Source: an uncultured Rickettsiales bacterium
GTDB lineage: Bacteria > Pseudomonadota > Alphaproteobacteria > Rickettsiales > UBA1997
DNA: 64,000 nucleotides
Direction: 5' to 3'
Assembly: GCA_944391025.1 (NCBI GenBank)
Contig: CALXSC010000088.1
Location: 8,278 to 72,277, forward strand
The position numbers and the translations under genes were made by a program. This document shows positions 151 through 7,623 of this stretch, one piece after another. Position 1 is the stretch's first letter. Every line of letters starts with the position of its first letter. The notes under the pieces were generated by a model, which saw only the letters and a list, made by a program, of their open reading frames with translations, was not told the DNA's origin and made no database searches.

Positions 151-1548
151 TTATTCAAAATTAATATCAAATCCTTCCATTTGCAATTGCTCCTTAAGCT
201 CTTTTTTGCAAACTTCTAGACCTTCCTCTGTCATAGCTTCTGCTCTTGCTGTCATAGCAGGCTCTGTATTTGAACTCCTGATTAGCCACCAGTCGCTTTT
301 ATTTACGTAAACCCTCGCACCATCAATTTGAATGACTTTTCTTCCTTTAGCCTTCATTCTTTCGGCAATCTCGTCAGGAACTTTATATTTAATAATATCA
401 TCTGGAGTTTTTATCTTAATTTTTTTAGTCAAATATGTTTTAGGAAATGTTTTTCTAATATCTTCCAGGGTTTCGTTTCCATTTGCTAAAAAGTTAATCA
501 TTTTCATTGTAGCAACTAAACTATCGTCAAAATTATGGTTTTCACCATAGTAGATATGGCAGCTGGTTTCTCCGCCAATTTTTATATTATCTTCTTTCAT
601 TTTGGCTTTAAAAGCAGAATGTCCTGGTTTCCACATAACTGGAATGCCGCTAAATTTTTCAATGTCATCAACTAGAATCTGGCTTGAAGAAATTTCAAAT
701 AGAACTTTTTCACCAGGATTTTCCTTTAGGAAAGGCCTCATAAGTATATCAAGGATTTCGTCTCCAAAATAAATATATCCCTCTCTATCTATAAATCCCA
801 ATCTATCACCATCACCGTCATAGGATATGCCTAAATCATAGCCGCCGTCAACGACTGCGTTTTTTAAATCCTGCATTTCTTTAGCAAGTGAAGGATCCGC
901 AAGGTGATTAGGGAATCTTCCATCAACAGTGTCATATAAAAACTTGTGTTTTCCAGGCAGGTTTTTCATAACATCATGAATAACGTCAGCTACAACGCCG
1001 TTTCCGGTATCAAAAACTATATTTAGAACCTTTGAATTTGGAGTTAGTTTTAGGAAAGACAGCACATATTTTATATAGTCTTCTCTAACATTAGCCTTAG
1101 TAATTTTGCCATTTCCTGTTGCAAAATCACCGCTTTCGGCAATTTTTCCAATTTTTTGTATATCATCACCCCAAACCGGATCTTCCTTTGTAAGCATCTT
1201 AAAACCGTTGTATTCGGCGGGATTATGGGAAGCTGTGATTATCATGCCGGCGTCAACATTCAAATGCCATACAGACCAATACATGCAAGGACTCATAACT
1301 AGACCTAAATCTATTGCATCTATACCGGCTGTAATTAATCCTTCCATAAAATATTTCTGCAATTCCTCAGAACTAACTCTTCCGTCTCTGCCAACCACGC
1401 AGGTTTTTTTATTCAAATTTCTTAAAAATGTTCCATAGGCCTTTCCCATAAAATAAGCATCAGTAGTATCAAAATCCTTGCCAAAAACGCCCCTTACATC
1501 ATAGGCTTTTAGAATTGAAGGAGTAAATTTATGAGTTTTTGCATCCAT
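151..1548 (-). CDS. Phosphomannomutase/phosphoglucomutase (AlgC-like)
   Basis: YDVRG N-terminus, ITASHNP phosphoserine loop, DGDGDR metal loop, GETSCH. Confidence 0.93.
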   Translation of the reverse strand: MDAKTHKFTPSILKAYDVRGVFGKDFDTTDAYFMGKAYGTFLRNLNKKTCVVGRDGRVSSEELQKYFMEGLITAGIDAIDLGLVMSPCMYWSVWHLNVDAGMIITASHNPAEYNGFKMLTKEDPVWGDDIQKIGKIAESGDFATGNGKITKANVREDYIKYVLSFLKLTPNSKVLNIVFDTGNGVVADVIHDVMKNLPGKHKFLYDTVDGRFPNHLADPSLAKEMQDLKNAVVDGGYDLGISYDGDGDRLGFIDREGYIYFGDEILDILMRPFLKENPGEKVLFEISSSQILVDDIEKFSGIPVMWKPGHSAFKAKMKEDNIKIGGETSCHIYYGENHNFDDSLVATMKMINFLANGNETLEDIRKTFPKTYLTKKIKIKTPDDIIKYKVPDEIAERMKAKGRKVIQIDGARVYVNKSDWWLIRSSNTEPAMTARAEAMTEEGLEVCKKELKEQLQMEGFDINFE

Positions 1549-1778: not shown

Positions 1779-3806
1779 GTGTATTATTTTATGGAACAGA
1801 CACTTGAACAAATTTTGAAACAAAAAAGAACTGAAGTAACTAGACAATATGTTGCGGGAAAATATAGAAGTACTGAAGAGGCCAAACGTAAATATTTTGT
1901 TTTGCAGCAGACTATGGACTCCGATTATTATTTTAATCTTCTTTCTGAATCTGCTAGAAATAGCTTTTTAATTGGCGAACCAAATTTGACTGATATTTTT
2001 GATAAAATTTTATGTATGGCTAGCGAAAAAAACGTAAAGAAGATGCAAATATCTTTAAATAGTGTTTCTATGTGTATAGAAAGGATGGCTAATTCTTTAG
2101 TTAGTGTATATGATACTGAAATATTTTATAATATCGTTTCTGCATTCGCCAATAATCTTGATGCTCAAGCAAGGAGTACCGTATTGGACTCTTTAAGGAG
2201 TTCTCTTTTAAAAAGAAGCGAAAACTATTTTAGTCCATTGAGAGAAGAGAAAGAGGCACTATATTCTTTGGCTGGATGTTTTAATATGCCATTTTTATTT
2301 GAAGAGAAAATTTTTCCTCTACCAAACGCAAAGGAACTATTTTTATCATTCCAATCTGGAACAGAAATAACGGGGCAATTAACTTCTCCAATAAAAAATG
2401 ATAGGACAACCGCTAGGAGTAAAATTTTATCATTAGTTTCAGATATTAGCGATGCTGAGCAGTGCAATATGTTTTTTAAACTAGCCAGCGGAACAGAAAC
2501 TGTTTATTTTGATGAAGATTTTGAAAACAATCGTTTTCAACTAAGAAGGGTTTCTAGTGGTACTACAATTCCAGAATCAGACGTTGTAAGAGATTCGCAA
2601 TTTAGCCAGTCATCACTATTCGGCATTTTGATGGTCCAAGCATCTTTAGAGGATGAAATGAGTCCAGATGAAAGTCAAAAAATAAAAAATTTATTGAGAA
2701 CTCAGATAGTAAAACTATTTGCTATGGTGAATAAAAGAGAAGGTGACTATTTAAAATATATCATTCCGCTCTCCTATAATGTCAATACAACCGGTTTAGA
2801 CATTAACCGAATGACCGTTTTAGATTTTGCTAAAGGTTATTTCAACAAGGATTCAGAAGTTATAGAAAAATTAAACTATCTAGAAAGGATAAATACAGAA
2901 TATAGAACTAATGGTATTAGAGCTGCAAGGTCTTTAGTTTTCGCGAAAGAACCTAGGAAAGTTCAGAAAAGAGATGCAAAAAAGAAAAAGGGTACTCCTA
3001 CAAAAAAACCAATCAAAAAAGCTTTAAGAATATTTGAGAATGGTCAAGACAAAGAGACTTTGGAGAAAGTATCAGCCTTAAAGAAAGCTATATTTGGATT
3101 ATCAAAAAGTAAAAGAAAAGTGGTTTTGGATATTATTTCTGATATTGACGATAGTAACGCACTTGCTAAATTAAATGAAATTTCTGAGCAGTTTAAAGGA
3201 ACAAAAGTTGGGTCTACCGCAACAGAACTTTATTCATTTATAAATAGTCGTGCATCAATTTCTTCTTCGGATTTATCAAAATCAGCAGAGCCTGTTATAA
3301 AATTTGATGCTCCACAGCATTCTGTGCCTATGAAGCATTTCGCTGCTTTACATATTAACGAAAGCGAGGAAAAAAAAGAAAAGGTTATTCCTGCTAAATC
3401 AATACAGGAAAAAGCCGCTGAGTTATTGGAAAGAATGAAATCCTTTGACAGTGAAGTATCTTCAATGAAAACATCCAGCAATCTTATAGCCGATAAAAAT
3501 AAGGTCAAGAAGCTTAGCGGATATGTTGACGAATTTATGGAGATTACTGAAAGCTTAAAAAAAGTTGACGCTATTGGGCTTGAGGTTAGAGTTAAAATTC
3601 TCGATGAAATTACTAAAATCAGAAGCACAATTCCAGTATTTATTATTAATGAAGAAGCTGGTCTTAGCGATAGATTGGAAAATATGGTTGCCGTTCTTGC
3701 TCCTAGAAGTTCTAGCGTTGAAAATGCAGGATGGAAAAAAACTGTAAGACAAACTAGAAAGAATATGAAGGAAAAAGAAAGCATGATGCTATCAAGTAAC
3801 AATTAA
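1779..3806 (+). CDS. Hypothetical protein (675 aa), Lys-rich segment and basic C-terminus; candidate secreted effector
   Basis: Long ORF with its own promoter; probable ATG start at 1791; no recognisable family motif. Confidence 0.75.
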   Translation: MYYFMEQTLEQILKQKRTEVTRQYVAGKYRSTEEAKRKYFVLQQTMDSDYYFNLLSESARNSFLIGEPNLTDIFDKILCMASEKNVKKMQISLNSVSMCIERMANSLVSVYDTEIFYNIVSAFANNLDAQARSTVLDSLRSSLLKRSENYFSPLREEKEALYSLAGCFNMPFLFEEKIFPLPNAKELFLSFQSGTEITGQLTSPIKNDRTTARSKILSLVSDISDAEQCNMFFKLASGTETVYFDEDFENNRFQLRRVSSGTTIPESDVVRDSQFSQSSLFGILMVQASLEDEMSPDESQKIKNLLRTQIVKLFAMVNKREGDYLKYIIPLSYNVNTTGLDINRMTVLDFAKGYFNKDSEVIEKLNYLERINTEYRTNGIRAARSLVFAKEPRKVQKRDAKKKKGTPTKKPIKKALRIFENGQDKETLEKVSALKKAIFGLSKSKRKVVLDIISDIDDSNALAKLNEISEQFKGTKVGSTATELYSFINSRASISSSDLSKSAEPVIKFDAPQHSVPMKHFAALHINESEEKKEKVIPAKSIQEKAAELLERMKSFDSEVSSMKTSSNLIADKNKVKKLSGYVDEFMEITESLKKVDAIGLEVRVKILDEITKIRSTIPVFIINEEAGLSDRLENMVAVLAPRSSSVENAGWKKTVRQTRKNMKEKESMMLSSNN

Positions 3807-3850: not shown

Positions 3851-5026
3851 CTATTTTATTCTAGCCATGCCATTTTCTACAACTACATTTCCTTCTAATT
3901 CCAGTTCTGTTACAATTTCATTTATATCCTTTATCTGTATTCCCAAATCCTGACTCAGCAGGTCTAGAGATATCGGGGTATGGTTTAATTTTGACAGTAT
4001 TAATTCCTTATTATCCATAGGATCGGGCTCTTTTAATTCTTCCTCAAATGCAGCCTTTTCATCATTGGTAATCGTATCTTCCAAATCACCATCAAAAATT
4101 AAATTATCATTTTTTATCTTCTCCCTCTCCACGTCGCTTAATGTAAATGATGGCATCGGATTGTCATCTATTCTAAAATTTTGAACAATATCCAGAACGT
4201 CTTCAAGACTAGTAACAACATTAGCACCGTCCTTTATCAATTTATTTGAACCTTCACACCTATAGTCGTATGGATTTCCGGGAGTAACCAATAGTTCTCT
4301 GCCCTGCTCAAGCGCCTGTCTCGCTGTATGCAGAGTTCCAGACCTGGCGCCAGCTTCTATAACAATAATTGCTTCAGACAAACCGGACACTATCCTGTTT
4401 CTTGCAGGAAAATTTTCTGCCCTTGGCGCAGAATTAAATGGAACTTCTGAAATTATCAGACCCTTATTCTTTATTTCATAATATAATTCCTCATTGCCCC
4501 TTGGATATATATCGTCAACACCTCCGCCGAGTACAGCAATAGTTCCAGTTTCAATTGCACCACGATGCGCCGAACTATCTATTCCGCTAGCAAACCCCGA
4601 AGTTATAACAAAATCAGCCTCGCCCAATTCCCTAGCTAATTTTCTTGCAAAGTTACAGCCATTTGAAGAGGCAGTCCTTGAACCAACTATTGAAATTGAT
4701 CTCCTATTAAGCAACTCCTGATTGCCTAAAATTGTCAAAACAGGAGGAAATGTGTCTATATGTTTAAGCAACCTTGGATATTCTTTGCTATTAAAGGTTA
4801 TTATTTTTGCACCAATAGTAGAGCAACCGACGATTTCCCTATCAATTTCTTCCTTGCTTGCAATTACTATTGGGTTTTTGCTCCTGCTTCTCCTATTGAA
4901 ATCTTGAATATTAGAAATTGCAGTTTCACAATCACCAAAATATTCCAATAACCTTACAAAAGTTAATGGTCCAACATTTTTACTTCTAAAAAGCCTTAAA
5001 ATATTATAATCTTTTTGCGACAACAT
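3851..5026 (-). CDS. dprA: DNA-processing protein DprA
   Basis: IVGSR, SGFASGID, FPARNRIVSGLS, SGTLHTA motifs and C-terminal winged helix. Confidence 0.95.
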   Translation of the reverse strand: MLSQKDYNILRLFRSKNVGPLTFVRLLEYFGDCETAISNIQDFNRRSRSKNPIVIASKEEIDREIVGCSTIGAKIITFNSKEYPRLLKHIDTFPPVLTILGNQELLNRRSISIVGSRTASSNGCNFARKLARELGEADFVITSGFASGIDSSAHRGAIETGTIAVLGGGVDDIYPRGNEELYYEIKNKGLIISEVPFNSAPRAENFPARNRIVSGLSEAIIVIEAGARSGTLHTARQALEQGRELLVTPGNPYDYRCEGSNKLIKDGANVVTSLEDVLDIVQNFRIDDNPMPSFTLSDVEREKIKNDNLIFDGDLEDTITNDEKAAFEEELKEPDPMDNKELILSKLNHTPISLDLLSQDLGIQIKDINEIVTELELEGNVVVENGMARIK

Positions 5027-5370
5027 ATTTTTTCCATAATTAAAGTCAAATCAAAAATAAATAGAATAATTTAACTTTTTATATAACTTAATTATGTAAT
5101 ATATATTTATAAAAAATAAAAAACAACAACTAATCTTAAATTTTTCAACATTTCACAACCATAGATATATACCAATAAGTTGTATAAAAAATACAACTAT
5201 AAAGTTGTATTTTAAAAAATTAGATAGGCGTATATTTCAACTATATGTAATGATGTTTTATAAAAATAACCTAGGATTATTTATTTTAAAAATTCCATGG
5301 TTTTTTATAGCTATTTAGCTTTTAATTGAAACGCATAACCCGCTTTACCAAAGAGATATTTAAAAATCAA

Positions 5371-5665
5371 ACGAAGCACGAAGTGGGCGGGATGTTGGCT
5401 TGCCAAACATCACGAGCCTGCCGTCCCACAAAGTGCCGAAGCGACTGCAAGGAGCAAGAAGCACGAAGCAGAGGGGAAGGAAGCTTGCTTCACTTCACCA
5501 GTGAAGCGAAGCTGAACGATCTGCGAAGTGCGAGACGACCAAAGGGAGTATCAAGCACGAAGCCAAAACAAACGAAGCTTGTTTCAGTTTTCTAGCTTGT
5601 CGTTGGGCGAAGTGCCGAAGCGACCACAAGGAGCAAGAAGCAATATATATATAGATATATATTGC
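5371..5665 (+). ncRNA. Candidate structured RNA / tandem array of three hairpin modules with conserved linkers
   Basis: GC-rich island; 33-nt direct repeats at 5431-5463 and 5610-5642 (2 mismatches) and a variant at 5526-5557; each module is GCAC-GAA...(G/A)AA-GTGC enclosing a CUUG-capped hairpin with a bulged A. Confidence 0.55.
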
Positions 5666-5912
5666 AAGGCTTAATTTTTAAATATATAAAATCAAAAGTT
5701 AGGATAAGATGGGACCTTGGAATTTTAAGGCTTTTTAGGATTACGGAAATGTTTCAAGTAAAATTGAAATGAGTATATAATAGGCAATAATCTACCCATA
5801 GCCATTTTTATGGTATAAATAAAAAATTAAAAATTATAATTTAAAATTTTCTTGCAATTTAAAACATAATATATATACATTGAGGAAAGGTTTATATTTA
5901 ATTATAATAACA

Positions 5913-6071
5913 ATGTTTAGAAGATTTTTGTCGGGTTTTATGACTTGTTTTCCTTTTGTTTGCTTATCTGATAAAGATATAAAGTATTTTCCTGAGGAAA
6001 TATATAGAAATGATTGGAAAACAGTAGGAATTGACATTAAAAATACAATAAAAAAACAACAAAAAATATAG
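5913..6071 (+). CDS. Small hypothetical protein
   Basis: Short ORF (MFRRFLSGF...DWKTVGIDIK) directly upstream of the DUF2335-like gene. Confidence 0.5.
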   Translation: MFRRFLSGFMTCFPFVCLSDKDIKYFPEEIYRNDWKTVGIDIKNTIKKQQKI

Positions 6072-6078
6072 GATTGAA

Positions 6079-6501
6079 ATGAATATTATTCAAGAAAAAA
6101 GAGAGACACTTTTACCACCTCCAGAATTACTGGAAAGATACGAAAATATATCAAAAGGTTTGTCAAAGGACTTGGTTGACCTAGTTAAAAAAGAACAGAT
6201 ACATAGACATAAATTGCAGGACAGATATTTAATGCATTTCAGATTGGGGCAAATTTTTGGTTCATTATTTTTAATATATATAATATATATGATTTTTGAC
6301 TTAGCCAAAACTGGAAATTTTACTATAGCATATCTAATGTCAGCCATGTTTGGATTATTAATAGTATTGATTTTATTGCAGTATAAAAAAGACAAATTAA
6401 GCGCTATTATAAGAAATTCAGGCAAAACAAATAATGGCGGCCAAAACAGAAGAAACAACAATTATAGAAGAAATTATACACAAAAGAGAACAAATAACTA
6501 A
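6079..6501 (+). CDS. DUF2335-like membrane protein
   Basis: LPPPELLERYE motif followed by two hydrophobic helices. Confidence 0.7.
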   Translation: MNIIQEKRETLLPPPELLERYENISKGLSKDLVDLVKKEQIHRHKLQDRYLMHFRLGQIFGSLFLIYIIYMIFDLAKTGNFTIAYLMSAMFGLLIVLILLQYKKDKLSAIIRNSGKTNNGGQNRRNNNYRRNYTQKRTNN

Positions 6502-6522: not shown

Positions 6523-7623
6523 ATGGCAGTATCAACAGAAAAACAAAAAGCATTAGAGATAGCCTTACAACAAATAGACAAACAATTCGGCAAGGGTTCA
6601 GCTATGAAGTTTGGACAAAAACCGGTTGAAAATATAAAAGTAATACCTTCAGGTTCATTAACTCTAGACGAAGCGCTTGGAGTTGGCGGTTATCCAAGAG
6701 GCAGAATTATTGAAATATATGGACCGGAGAGCTCTGGTAAGACAACACTGACACTCCATGCTATAGCTGAAGCACAAAAACAAGATCTAACATGCGCATT
6801 TATTGACGCAGAACACGCATTTGATCCAACCTATGCAAAAAAGTTAGGCATTAACCTAGACGAGCTTATAATTTCCCAGCCTAGCAGCGGAGAAGAGGCG
6901 TTGGAAATAGCTGATACTCTAGTTAGGTCTGGAGCTGTGGATGTTATAGTTATTGACTCAGTTGCAGCACTGGTTCCAAAGGCTGAATTGGAAGGAGCTA
7001 TGGAAGATAACCAAATGGGTCTACAGGCTAGATTAATGAGTAAAGCATTGAGAAAATTAACTGGTTCAGTTTCAAAAACAAATTGTACAGTATTCTTTAT
7101 TAACCAAATCAGAATGAAGATTGGCATAATGTTCGGTTCGCCAGAAACTACTACCGGAGGAAACGCTTTGAAATTCTATGCGTCAGTTAGATTGGATGTA
7201 AGAAAGGGCGCGCAAATAAAAGACAAGGAAGAATCAGTTGGAAATGACACAACGGTTAAGATTGTAAAGAATAAAGTCGCACCTCCATTCAGAACTGCAA
7301 AGTTTGAAATAATCTATGGTGAAGGTATTTCTAAAATTGGAGAAATTATTGACCTTGGTGTAGATATGAATATAATTGAAAAATCAGGTTCATGGTATTC
7401 ATACAACAGCACAAGAATTGGTCAAGGCAAAGAAAACGTTAAGGAGTATCTAAAAAATAACCAGGAGATGCTACAGGAGATTGAGACTAAGATTAGGGTT
7501 AATTTCTGTGATCCGCTCAACTCAAATGATGACCAGGTTCTAGAGGAATTTAATGAAGAGAGTGAAGGTACAGCTGGACTAGAGGAAGAACCGGTTGAAA
7601 CTAAAAAAACTAAAAAGAAATAA
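6523..7623 (+). CDS. recA: Recombinase RecA
   Basis: GPESSGKTT Walker [12 protein letters not shown] signature; GGAG RBS. Confidence 0.99.

Follow-up and report, generated by a model that had tools for sequence, protein, structure and literature searches.

An array of modular hairpin repeats between dprA and the recA operon of an uncultured Rickettsiales bacterium, and the probable kinship of its dispersed family with mosaic mobile repeats

The hairpin array and its surroundings

The window analysed here is a stretch of 64,000 nucleotides from the genome of an uncultured Rickettsiales bacterium, an assembly of 1.84 Mb in 136 contigs with a G+C content of 31.6% (its contigs are written here as C followed by a number; the window lies on C88). 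Within the window, dprA and a DUF2335-recA operon diverge from a shared intergenic gap of 1.05 kb, and this gap contains an array of short hairpin-forming segments embedded in an AT-rich repeat. The G+C content of the array is about 50%, compared with 15-25% in its flanks. The features of the region, in window coordinates, are the following.

3851-5026, minus strand: dprA, left neighbour, outside the element (Pfam DNA_processg_A, E 8.6e-72)
5320-5375, no strand: left part of the AT-rich host repeat, containing a 15-nt inverted-repeat arm at 5356-5370
5376-5436, plus strand: module 1, 61-nt type (C88:13653-13713), a match of 74.7 bits to the covariance model R1 described below
5437-5460, plus strand: linker of type A, 24 nt, a small GA-rich hairpin with a GCAA cap
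5461-5531, plus strand: module 2, 71-nt type, with outer helices and CTTG hairpin as in module 1 and a longer 3' joining segment
5532-5554, plus strand: linker of type B, 23 nt
5555-5615, plus strand: module 3, 61-nt type, a chimera with its 5' half from one subfamily and its 3' half from another, and four stem mismatches
5616-5639, plus strand: terminal linker, a variant of type A, at the end of the inserted array
5640-5771, no strand: right part of the AT-rich host repeat, containing an AT palindrome (5640-5665) and an inverted-repeat arm (5671-5685)
6079-6501, plus strand: DUF2335 open reading frame, right neighbour, outside the element
6523-7623, plus strand: recA, right neighbour, outside the element (Pfam RecA, E 3e-138)

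The sequence-only reading of this DNA had described three modules, each closed by GCAC and GTGC with a GAA/RAA internal loop and each enclosing a hairpin that is capped by CTTG and has an A bulged out on its 3' side. This description is confirmed. The pattern GCACGAAG..RAAGTGC occurs 27 times in the genome, and its reversed control does not occur at all. In module 1, the closing helix P1 (GCAC/GTGC) is followed by a GAA/AAA internal loop, by P2, by P3 with its CTTG loop and bulged A, and by a joining segment of 10 nt. Near-identical copies of module 1 lie at C76:1858 and C19:20875, identical copies of module 2 at C28:3152, C28:3254 and C99:21308, and the chimera that makes up module 3 is present again at C28:3067 and C28:3525. 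The linkers recur as well, type A between modules on C13, C21, C28 and C19, and type B on C28, C31, C50 and C76.

Does the array coincide with a gene or a known RNA? An open reading frame of 89 aa (5326-5595) spans it; this frame belongs to no Pfam family and was treated as spurious. No terminators were predicted in the array region, ARAGORN found no tRNA or tmRNA in 5000-6100, and blastn of the array against a plasmid collection gave no match. Comparison with Rfam, which had been suggested as a check, assigned the array to no family: a cmscan of 4800-6300 at E<=10 placed bxd_4 alone across the array, with a chance-level score of 18 bits against a gathering threshold of 40. A cmscan at E<=0.1 of three further loci with arrays gave no match on the arrays themselves, and its one strong match was the two-piece alphaproteobacterial tmRNA that adjoins the array on C28.

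Fold and compensatory change

How stable is the predicted fold, and does it reside in the array or in its single parts? Folded as one strand, the whole array is more stable than all of 100 shuffled sequences, with z-scores of -5.0 for the plus strand and -3.8 for the minus strand. Module 2 has a strong fold of its own (z -4.35 as RNA and -3.56 as DNA). Module 3 does exist where it had been placed, but it is a degenerate chimera which, taken alone, folds no better than shuffled sequences (z -0.65 as RNA and -0.25 as DNA). The linkers had been read as covarying hairpins. Five or more sequence types can indeed be told apart among them, all built on one plan, namely a short outer stem, G.A mismatches and a variable inner stem capped by GCAA, ACAA, AAAG, GAAA or GAA, but each of them folds weakly by itself (-1.5 to -4 kcal/mol, z -0.1 to -2.2).

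An alignment of 30 distinct 61-nt modules, 26 from the window's genome and four from three related metagenome-assembled genomes, was used to build the covariance model R1. In the consensus, P1 comprises 4 bp (GCAC/GTGC) and opens into a 3x3 GAA/GAA internal loop; P2 comprises 6 bp; and P3 comprises 10 bp with a G(CTTG)C loop and an invariable bulged A four pairs beneath the loop. The joining segment of 10 nt is conserved as TAGCYTGYCG or TAACYTGTTG. For the 71-nt type, single-sequence folding by minimum free energy preferred an alternative hairpin, which was rejected after inspection by eye showed it to be lost in the C5 and C15 variants, where the CTTG hairpin is kept.

Across this 30-module alignment, standard pairs occupy 92.7% of the cells, compared with 29-41% after a shift of the 3' partners by 1-3 columns, and both sides have changed in 13 of the 20 pairs. 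The covariation score was reached by none of 500 shuffles, although this control overstates the significance of the covariation because the copies are kin and not independent of each other. P1 itself is found in the compensated variants AAAC/GTTT, GTGC/GCAC and ACAC/GTGT. The fold is conserved across subfamilies by compensatory changes, and the earlier statement that structure is kept while sequence varies holds for the family at large. Compensated arms of a palindrome can also be generated without selection, by hairpin-templated correction.

On which strand, and in which nucleic acid, might the fold matter? G-U pairs had been thought to favour the plus strand. Among the 740 stem cells of 37 genomic 61-nt modules, 676 are Watson-Crick pairs, 13 are G.T and 16 are A.C; the two kinds of mismatch are balanced and therefore favour neither strand. 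This result bears on a putative role as RNA, in which transcribed arrays would serve as folded elements of 5' or 3' untranslated regions (stabilisers, processing sites or platforms for proteins) and would have been spread by their use to the host. The RNA-like vocabulary of motifs keeps this reading alive, since the G(CUUG)C tetraloop, the GCAA/GAAA-type (GNRA-like) caps, the tandem G.A pairs, the GAA/GAA loops and the bulged A are all motifs of stable RNAs. It is also in keeping with the strong excess of A over T on the module strand (a skew of 0.27-0.48 across the window array), with the z-score of the plus-strand fold and with two sources that report REPs elsewhere as RNA elements in 3' untranslated regions (PMC3733652; bioRxiv 10.64898/2026.03.23.713779). 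The balance of G.T and A.C and the almost equal folding of the minus strand point the other way, as do the positions of the arrays in the genome.

Dispersal, insertion sites and relatives

The window array has many relatives in its own genome. It gave 64 matches by blastn, and R1 gave 89 matches at E<=0.01; the 74 R1 matches that were analysed fall into 36 loci, spread over 29 contigs. When all array loci were used as BLAST queries, related repeat was identified in 65 regions on 41 contigs; these regions add up to no less than 15.6 kb, or 0.85% of the assembly, and have a median G+C content of 48%, compared with 31.6% genome-wide. A contig end lies less than 600 nt away at 13 of the 36 module loci, and related-repeat regions reach 21 of the 272 contig ends; the family therefore breaks the assembly, and the repeat counts are lower bounds. 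At 32 of the 36 loci, no open reading frame of at least 100 aa spans the modules. The clear genic case (n=1) is idi, which contains a TIR-bounded MITE that carries a module.

Arrays run in either orientation, and the genes that flank them may be divergent, convergent or in tandem. The modules within an array are mostly arranged head-to-tail (7/7 on C28, 4/4 on C21 and 3/3 in the window), and a minority of loci contain modules in both orientations. The mix of modules and linkers differs from one array to the next.

Is the array in the window nevertheless dedicated to the genes beside it? The sequence-only reading had linked it to dprA and recA, as a locus-specific structured RNA or ssDNA element that serves these recombination or transformation genes, for example as the leader of the recA operon or as an RNA with multivalent protein binding. 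The position of the array in the divergent gap and the sense orientation of its modules relative to recA are what such a function would predict. Two promoter-like matches (5764-5791 and 5880-5908) have also been counted in its favour, although shuffled sequences give as many, and they lie downstream of the array, which therefore need not be part of the recA transcript. Against this reading, kin of the window units occur at 35 other loci, beside unrelated genes, and the insertion site has an uninterrupted paralog on C60 (see below).

Comparison with relatives leads in the same direction. The recA locus was retrieved in four of five relatives searched (the fifth gave no match), with RecA 86-93% identical; all four keep the DUF2335-recA pair, none of them has a segment of at least 45% G+C upstream of recA that would mark a GC-rich island, and in none is dprA the next open reading frame. 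Where both loci were seen in a relative, dprA and recA are not neighbours, and the dprA loci of five out of five relatives carry no such array. As a separate observation, one relative has a different, C-rich repeat upstream of dprA.

The sequence-only reading had itself named occurrence at many intergenic sites without a link to dprA or recA as a result that would speak against it, and because the element does occur in this way, neither a leader nor a multivalent non-coding RNA is supported. The reading specific to dprA and recA is largely refuted by the dispersal of the units, and there is next to no chance that it is correct. The scatter of the repeats over the genome marks them instead, very probably, as selfish repeat DNA of the REP/RPE kind and not as a regulator of either gene. 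That a striking structured element stands beside two genes for incoming ssDNA is a coincidence of insertion, and its recognition as such removes a tempting but wrong regulatory story.

How did the array come to lie at this position? With the array removed, its flanks (5320-5375 and 5640-5771) match C60:14393-14572 by blastn without interruption, at 85.6% over 188 columns. C60:14393-14572 is an empty paralogous site that lacks the 264-nt array 5376-5639. It carries the AT palindrome and both arms of the 15-nt inverted repeat; the inverted repeat thus belongs to the host repeat, as does the palindrome at 5640-5665, which had been taken for the replacement of a fourth module. The hexamer GAAGCA is present as a single copy in the empty site, whereas in the window it stands at each of the two array junctions. 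The AT-rich host repeat is also found, in partial copies, beside arrays on C15, C21, C28 and C96.

Three further pairs of filled and empty sites were found in and around copies of IS200. A 71-nt unit that C36 and C38 lack precedes the start of tnpA in C50 and, at a distance of 27 nt, in C5. In C5 and C38, though not in C36, the tnpA frame is split and shifted by an 86-nt unit of the AAAC type. Finally, arrays of AAAC-type units lie in the right end of the IS200 copies on C50 and C19 but not in that on C5. The junction repeats are 2-7 nt long and include GAAGCA, GAAAA or 2 nt only; this variation in length is at odds with a single fixed staggered cut.

The units also insert into the CTTG loops of each other. 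At 13 junctions, a reverse-oriented unit, or up to three of them in tandem, follows directly after a CTTG and itself ends in CTTG, and for three or more of the 13 the host module can be recognised on either side of the insert, half and half. With the insertions into an IS200 gene and into a MITE, such nesting is a further argument against a role as RNA, as are the presence of arrays in both orientations and in all three gene contexts, the copy number of 2-46 in other species of the genus compared with 74 here, and the lack of a terminator-like site in the region and of a match in Rfam. Taken together, these observations make the RNA role unlikely.

The family has a narrow distribution. R1 matches were found in all eight other species of the genus (2-46 each, compared with 74 in the window's genome under the same filters), so that copy number varies more than 20-fold among those species. 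Beyond the genus, one of 16 other genera of the family, a sister genus, had matches and the 15 others had none; none of 16 other families was matched, nor was any of 150 other genomes in a broader sample of the order. A pattern scan of public contigs returned at least 117 stretches. Thirteen loci were inspected among the matches listed: the Rickettsiales-labelled loci L075, L082, L129 and L136 contain five true modules together, and the other nine were rejected as chance or coding matches.

Known repeat families and candidate mechanisms

To which class of repeats does the family belong? It is very likely a genus-restricted superfamily of GC-rich modular hairpin repeats, with the non-autonomous and selfish or mobile character of REP/BIME/RPE-type DNA. 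No description of this hairpin family was found in the literature searched, although supplements outside the scope of that search might list related repeats, and the element is probably a variant, so far undescribed in that literature, of mosaic mobile hairpin repeats of the REP/BIME/RPE type. The module family resembles REP/BIME, RPE and BOX-type repeats but differs from them in the features by which they are defined: size, a terminal GTAG, alternation of orientation, an associated RAYT, in-frame insertion into genes and perhaps a terminal CGTC.

REP-like hairpins with extrahelical bases, one of the candidates named at the outset, come close to what was found. As described in PMC2817692 and PMC3733652, REPs and BIMEs (bacterial interspersed mosaic elements) of enterobacteria and pseudomonads are high-copy intergenic palindromic repeats that form mosaic clusters with conserved linker motifs and vary in copy number between species; in part of the latter source, REP superfamilies are reported to comprise subfamilies that retain the stem by alternative complementary residues. 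In this broad sense the modules are REP-like, being high-copy (74 matches at 36 loci), mostly intergenic and marked by complementary stem changes (13 of 20 pairs). However, REP/BIME units are single palindromes of 20-40 bp, whereas the modules are 61 or 71 nt long with three helices and a joining segment of 10-20 nt, and the alternating orientation within REP/BIME clusters contrasts with the mostly head-to-tail arrays found here. REPs of the GTAG type have GTAG at one end and an associated RAYT; the modules start with GCAC (or AAAC, GTGC, ACAC) and end with GTGC (or GTTT, GCAC, GTGT), no RAYT is present, and none of the eight other species of the genus has a Y1 match.

CGTC-tagged REPs and Rickettsia palindromic elements (RPEs) share with the modules an AT-rich alphaproteobacterial host, an assignment that for the modules agrees with the two-piece tmRNA on C28 and with the Rickettsiales labels of related metagenome-assembled genomes. 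Both kinds can be clustered, and for neither is a dedicated transposase evident (PMC3733652; PMC10969869); the first of these sources indicates that alphaproteobacterial CGTC-tagged REPs and RPEs apparently do without one. CGTC occurs in 14 of the 30 aligned modules, at alignment columns 47-50. This is the junction of the joining segment and P2, an internal position, whereas CGTC-tagged REPs have the tag at one terminus. RPEs measure about 150 bp, and their insertion into genes is known to preserve the reading frame; by contrast, 32 of the 36 loci described here lack a spanning frame of at least 100 aa, and neither 85 nor 94 nt, the lengths of the units, is divisible by three. The absence of R1 matches from the 150 other genomes of the order may also set the two apart; the comparison is one with descriptions of RPEs.

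More distant parallels exist as well. Pneumococcal BOX elements are built as boxA-boxB(n)-boxC and share with the arrays a modular build and a variable number of internal units, but their sequence and host are unrelated, as are those of RUP and SPRITE, and the arrays consist of two alternating hairpin classes with many stem subfamilies. The GC clusters and double-hairpin elements of fungal mitochondria are GC-rich mobile hairpin islands in AT-rich genomes, nested and clustered; the likeness is one of analogy, as genomes and sequences differ. The units are not MITEs, as the 15-nt inverted repeat is that of the host repeat and there is no target-site duplication of fixed length (2-7 nt). Like the units, the pneumococcal repeats BOX, RUP and SPRITE cluster and insert into one another, according to part of PMC10969869.

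Which enzyme could move the units? The genome encodes two IS200-type Y1 tnpA genes and one fragment (three Y1_Tnp matches). It has been considered that the units are palindrome-associated derivatives of IS200/IS605 elements, moved as ssDNA by a Y1 (HUH) transposase that recognises the bulged hairpin and inserts 3' of a loop-exposed CTTG. Members of the IS200/IS605 family insert 3' of a tetranucleotide, and TnpA of IS608 recognises an imperfect hairpin with an extrahelical base. The modules are imperfect hairpins of this kind, and the 13 nested junctions after CTTG, with inserts that also end in CTTG, would fit insertion 3' of a tetranucleotide, while other junctions show GAAGCA, GAAAA or 2 nt only; the 71-nt unit located 27 nt upstream of a tnpA start seems to agree with this.

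However, the IS200 paralogs on C36 and C38 lack the 71-nt unit, which is therefore an insertion into the IS and not an IS end. The tnpA gene concerned is itself split by the 86-nt unit, and the intact IS200 on C91 has end hairpins unrelated to the modules. The IS200 copies are thus targets of the units and not their source, and the module hairpins do not match the ends of the resident IS. None of the eight other species has a Y1 match even though each carries 2-46 modules; these are draft genomes, which often lack multi-copy IS elements, and IS copies may be missing from them. Both Y1 proteins pass the IS200 model, and their RAYT scores of 31.5 and 22.7 bits fall below the cut-off of 80. REPINs, moreover, are inverted pairs of REPs according to part of PMC3337134, whereas the arrays are direct. 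Movement by a Y1 transposase is on balance unlikely.

Site-specific recombination is a further candidate. The modules would then be attC-like sites of an integron or other targets of a tyrosine recombinase, and units would be shuffled by recombination at a short core. Chimeric modules joined at the loop, the differing mixes of modules and linkers, short shared cores at junctions (for example GAAGCA and CTTG) and four tyrosine recombinase genes in the genome, of which those on C10 and C84 lie about 1.5 kb or less from arrays, could all be accommodated by such a process. Yet none of the four recombinases reaches the integron-integrase cut-off (the best scores 132.8 compared with 265 bits), and one is XerC-like and another XerD-like; the search for an integron integrase or a RAYT that had been recommended earlier thus found neither in this genome. 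The modules are separated by linkers of 23-31 nt and not by gene cassettes, and the cores differ between junctions. A recombinase-based origin of the arrays is very unlikely.

Among these draft genomes, IS110 gave no match in any of the nine from the genus, nor did the TnpB zinc ribbon in any of the 41 that were searched for it; a reverse transcriptase (RVT_1) was found in four of the nine genomes of the genus, with no matches in the window's genome. Across the searches for Y1/RAYT, IS110, TnpB, RVT_1 and integron integrase, no dedicated enzyme for moving the units was found.

How, then, might units of this REP/BIME/RPE kind spread? The array consists of three head-to-tail units, each a hairpin module with a small linker hairpin, and these units would be non-autonomous mobile DNA. 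The copy in the window was inserted into an AT-rich repeat whose location in the gap between dprA and the recA operon is a matter of chance. The fold may serve the propagation or persistence of the element itself, with the fixed CTTG loop, the bulged A and the GAA/GAA internal loop as putative recognition features. A protein might recognise the folded single strand, and this strand is somewhat more likely to be DNA than RNA, because the stems are strand-neutral and the units nest. Integration would rely on the 2-7-nt junction repeats, a short core or microhomology common to both partners and in many cases displayed by a hairpin loop, and any effect on the expression of recA or dprA would be incidental.

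A more specific version is that of a self-targeting mobile hairpin. In this scenario, the folded strand is recognised via G(CTTG)C, the bulged A and GAA/GAA, and it integrates at cores exposed in hairpin loops, including those of its own kin, without a Y1, IS110, TnpB, reverse-transcriptase or integron enzyme in most carriers. The proposal is a tentative one with a small probability of being right.

Irrespective of its mechanism, this is a well-defined and probably undescribed repeat family in an uncultured alphaproteobacterial genus, whose related metagenome-assembled genomes are labelled Rickettsiales. It offers a compact case for asking how hairpin repeats that lack an obvious transposase spread, as is also asked of CGTC-type REPs and RPEs. 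R1 can be used to mask the repeats in annotation and could serve as a marker for strain typing.

Data from metagenome runs touch on variation between strains, which had been proposed as a check. In four runs, the summed depth of contigs across 5356-5640 greatly exceeds that of the flanks. Joints from 5461/5463 to 5651 were set aside as pieces with many mismatches, probably from other loci. In one run, an X2 contig that matches the left flank joins 5372 to 5458 and skips module 1, and this single contig end gives a hint that the composition of the array may differ between strains.

An AT-rich host repeat at the arrays

Window 5320-5375 and 5640-5771; paralog G000:C60:14393-14572: AT-rich repeat of about 190 nt

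The AT-rich repeat, a second copy of which lies on another contig (C60) of the window's own genome (G000), contains a 15-nt inverted repeat and, at its centre, a small AT hairpin. It is a recurrent landing site for the GC-rich module arrays: partial copies of it lie beside arrays on contigs C15, C21, C28, and C96. The repeat may itself be a promoter region, a small RNA or another mobile element.

Insertions into genes and into other modules

L175 (G000:C5:1-2122), 138-691: IS200-family tnpA gene, split
L197 (G000:C13:29800-31100), ORF 227-1069, minus strand: isopentenyl-diphosphate isomerase-like NUDIX gene
G000:C13:11412-11705 and 12 other sites: 99-nt unit made up of a module closed by GTGC/GCAC and a linker of 21 nt

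An 86-nt module insertion splits the IS200-family tnpA gene on contig C5 after the first 17 codons and causes a frameshift; nothing interrupts the C36 paralog there. In the IS200 copies on C50 and C19, most of tnpA is gone and the right end holds three to four modules. In the NUDIX gene, an insertion of about 330 nt leaves the reading frame open; because perfect 20-nt terminal inverted repeats lie at its borders, it is a MITE, and it carries an AAAC-type module inside. This frame-keeping insertion resembles those of the Rickettsia palindromic elements, which are known to insert in frame.

The 99-nt unit is present as three tandem copies on C13. At those sites where a host module is visible, the orientation of the unit is opposite to that of its host.

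Other neighbours of dprA and the arrays

Window 1779-3806, plus strand: 675-aa ORF upstream of dprA
L192 3010-3380 (G006:C24): series of short mini-hairpins of the C-rich...TGTGAAGG type upstream of dprA
L002 639-966 (G000:C28:2492-2819): tmRNA gene of the two-piece (permuted) alphaproteobacterial type (Rfam RF01849, 180 bits)

The 675-aa ORF matches no Pfam family at E<=0.001. In the closest relative (G006), a different repeat is found upstream of dprA, and its mini-hairpins are unrelated to the GC-rich modules. The largest regular array, with seven modules, is on C28, and the two-piece tmRNA gene is located upstream of it at a distance of about 160 nt.
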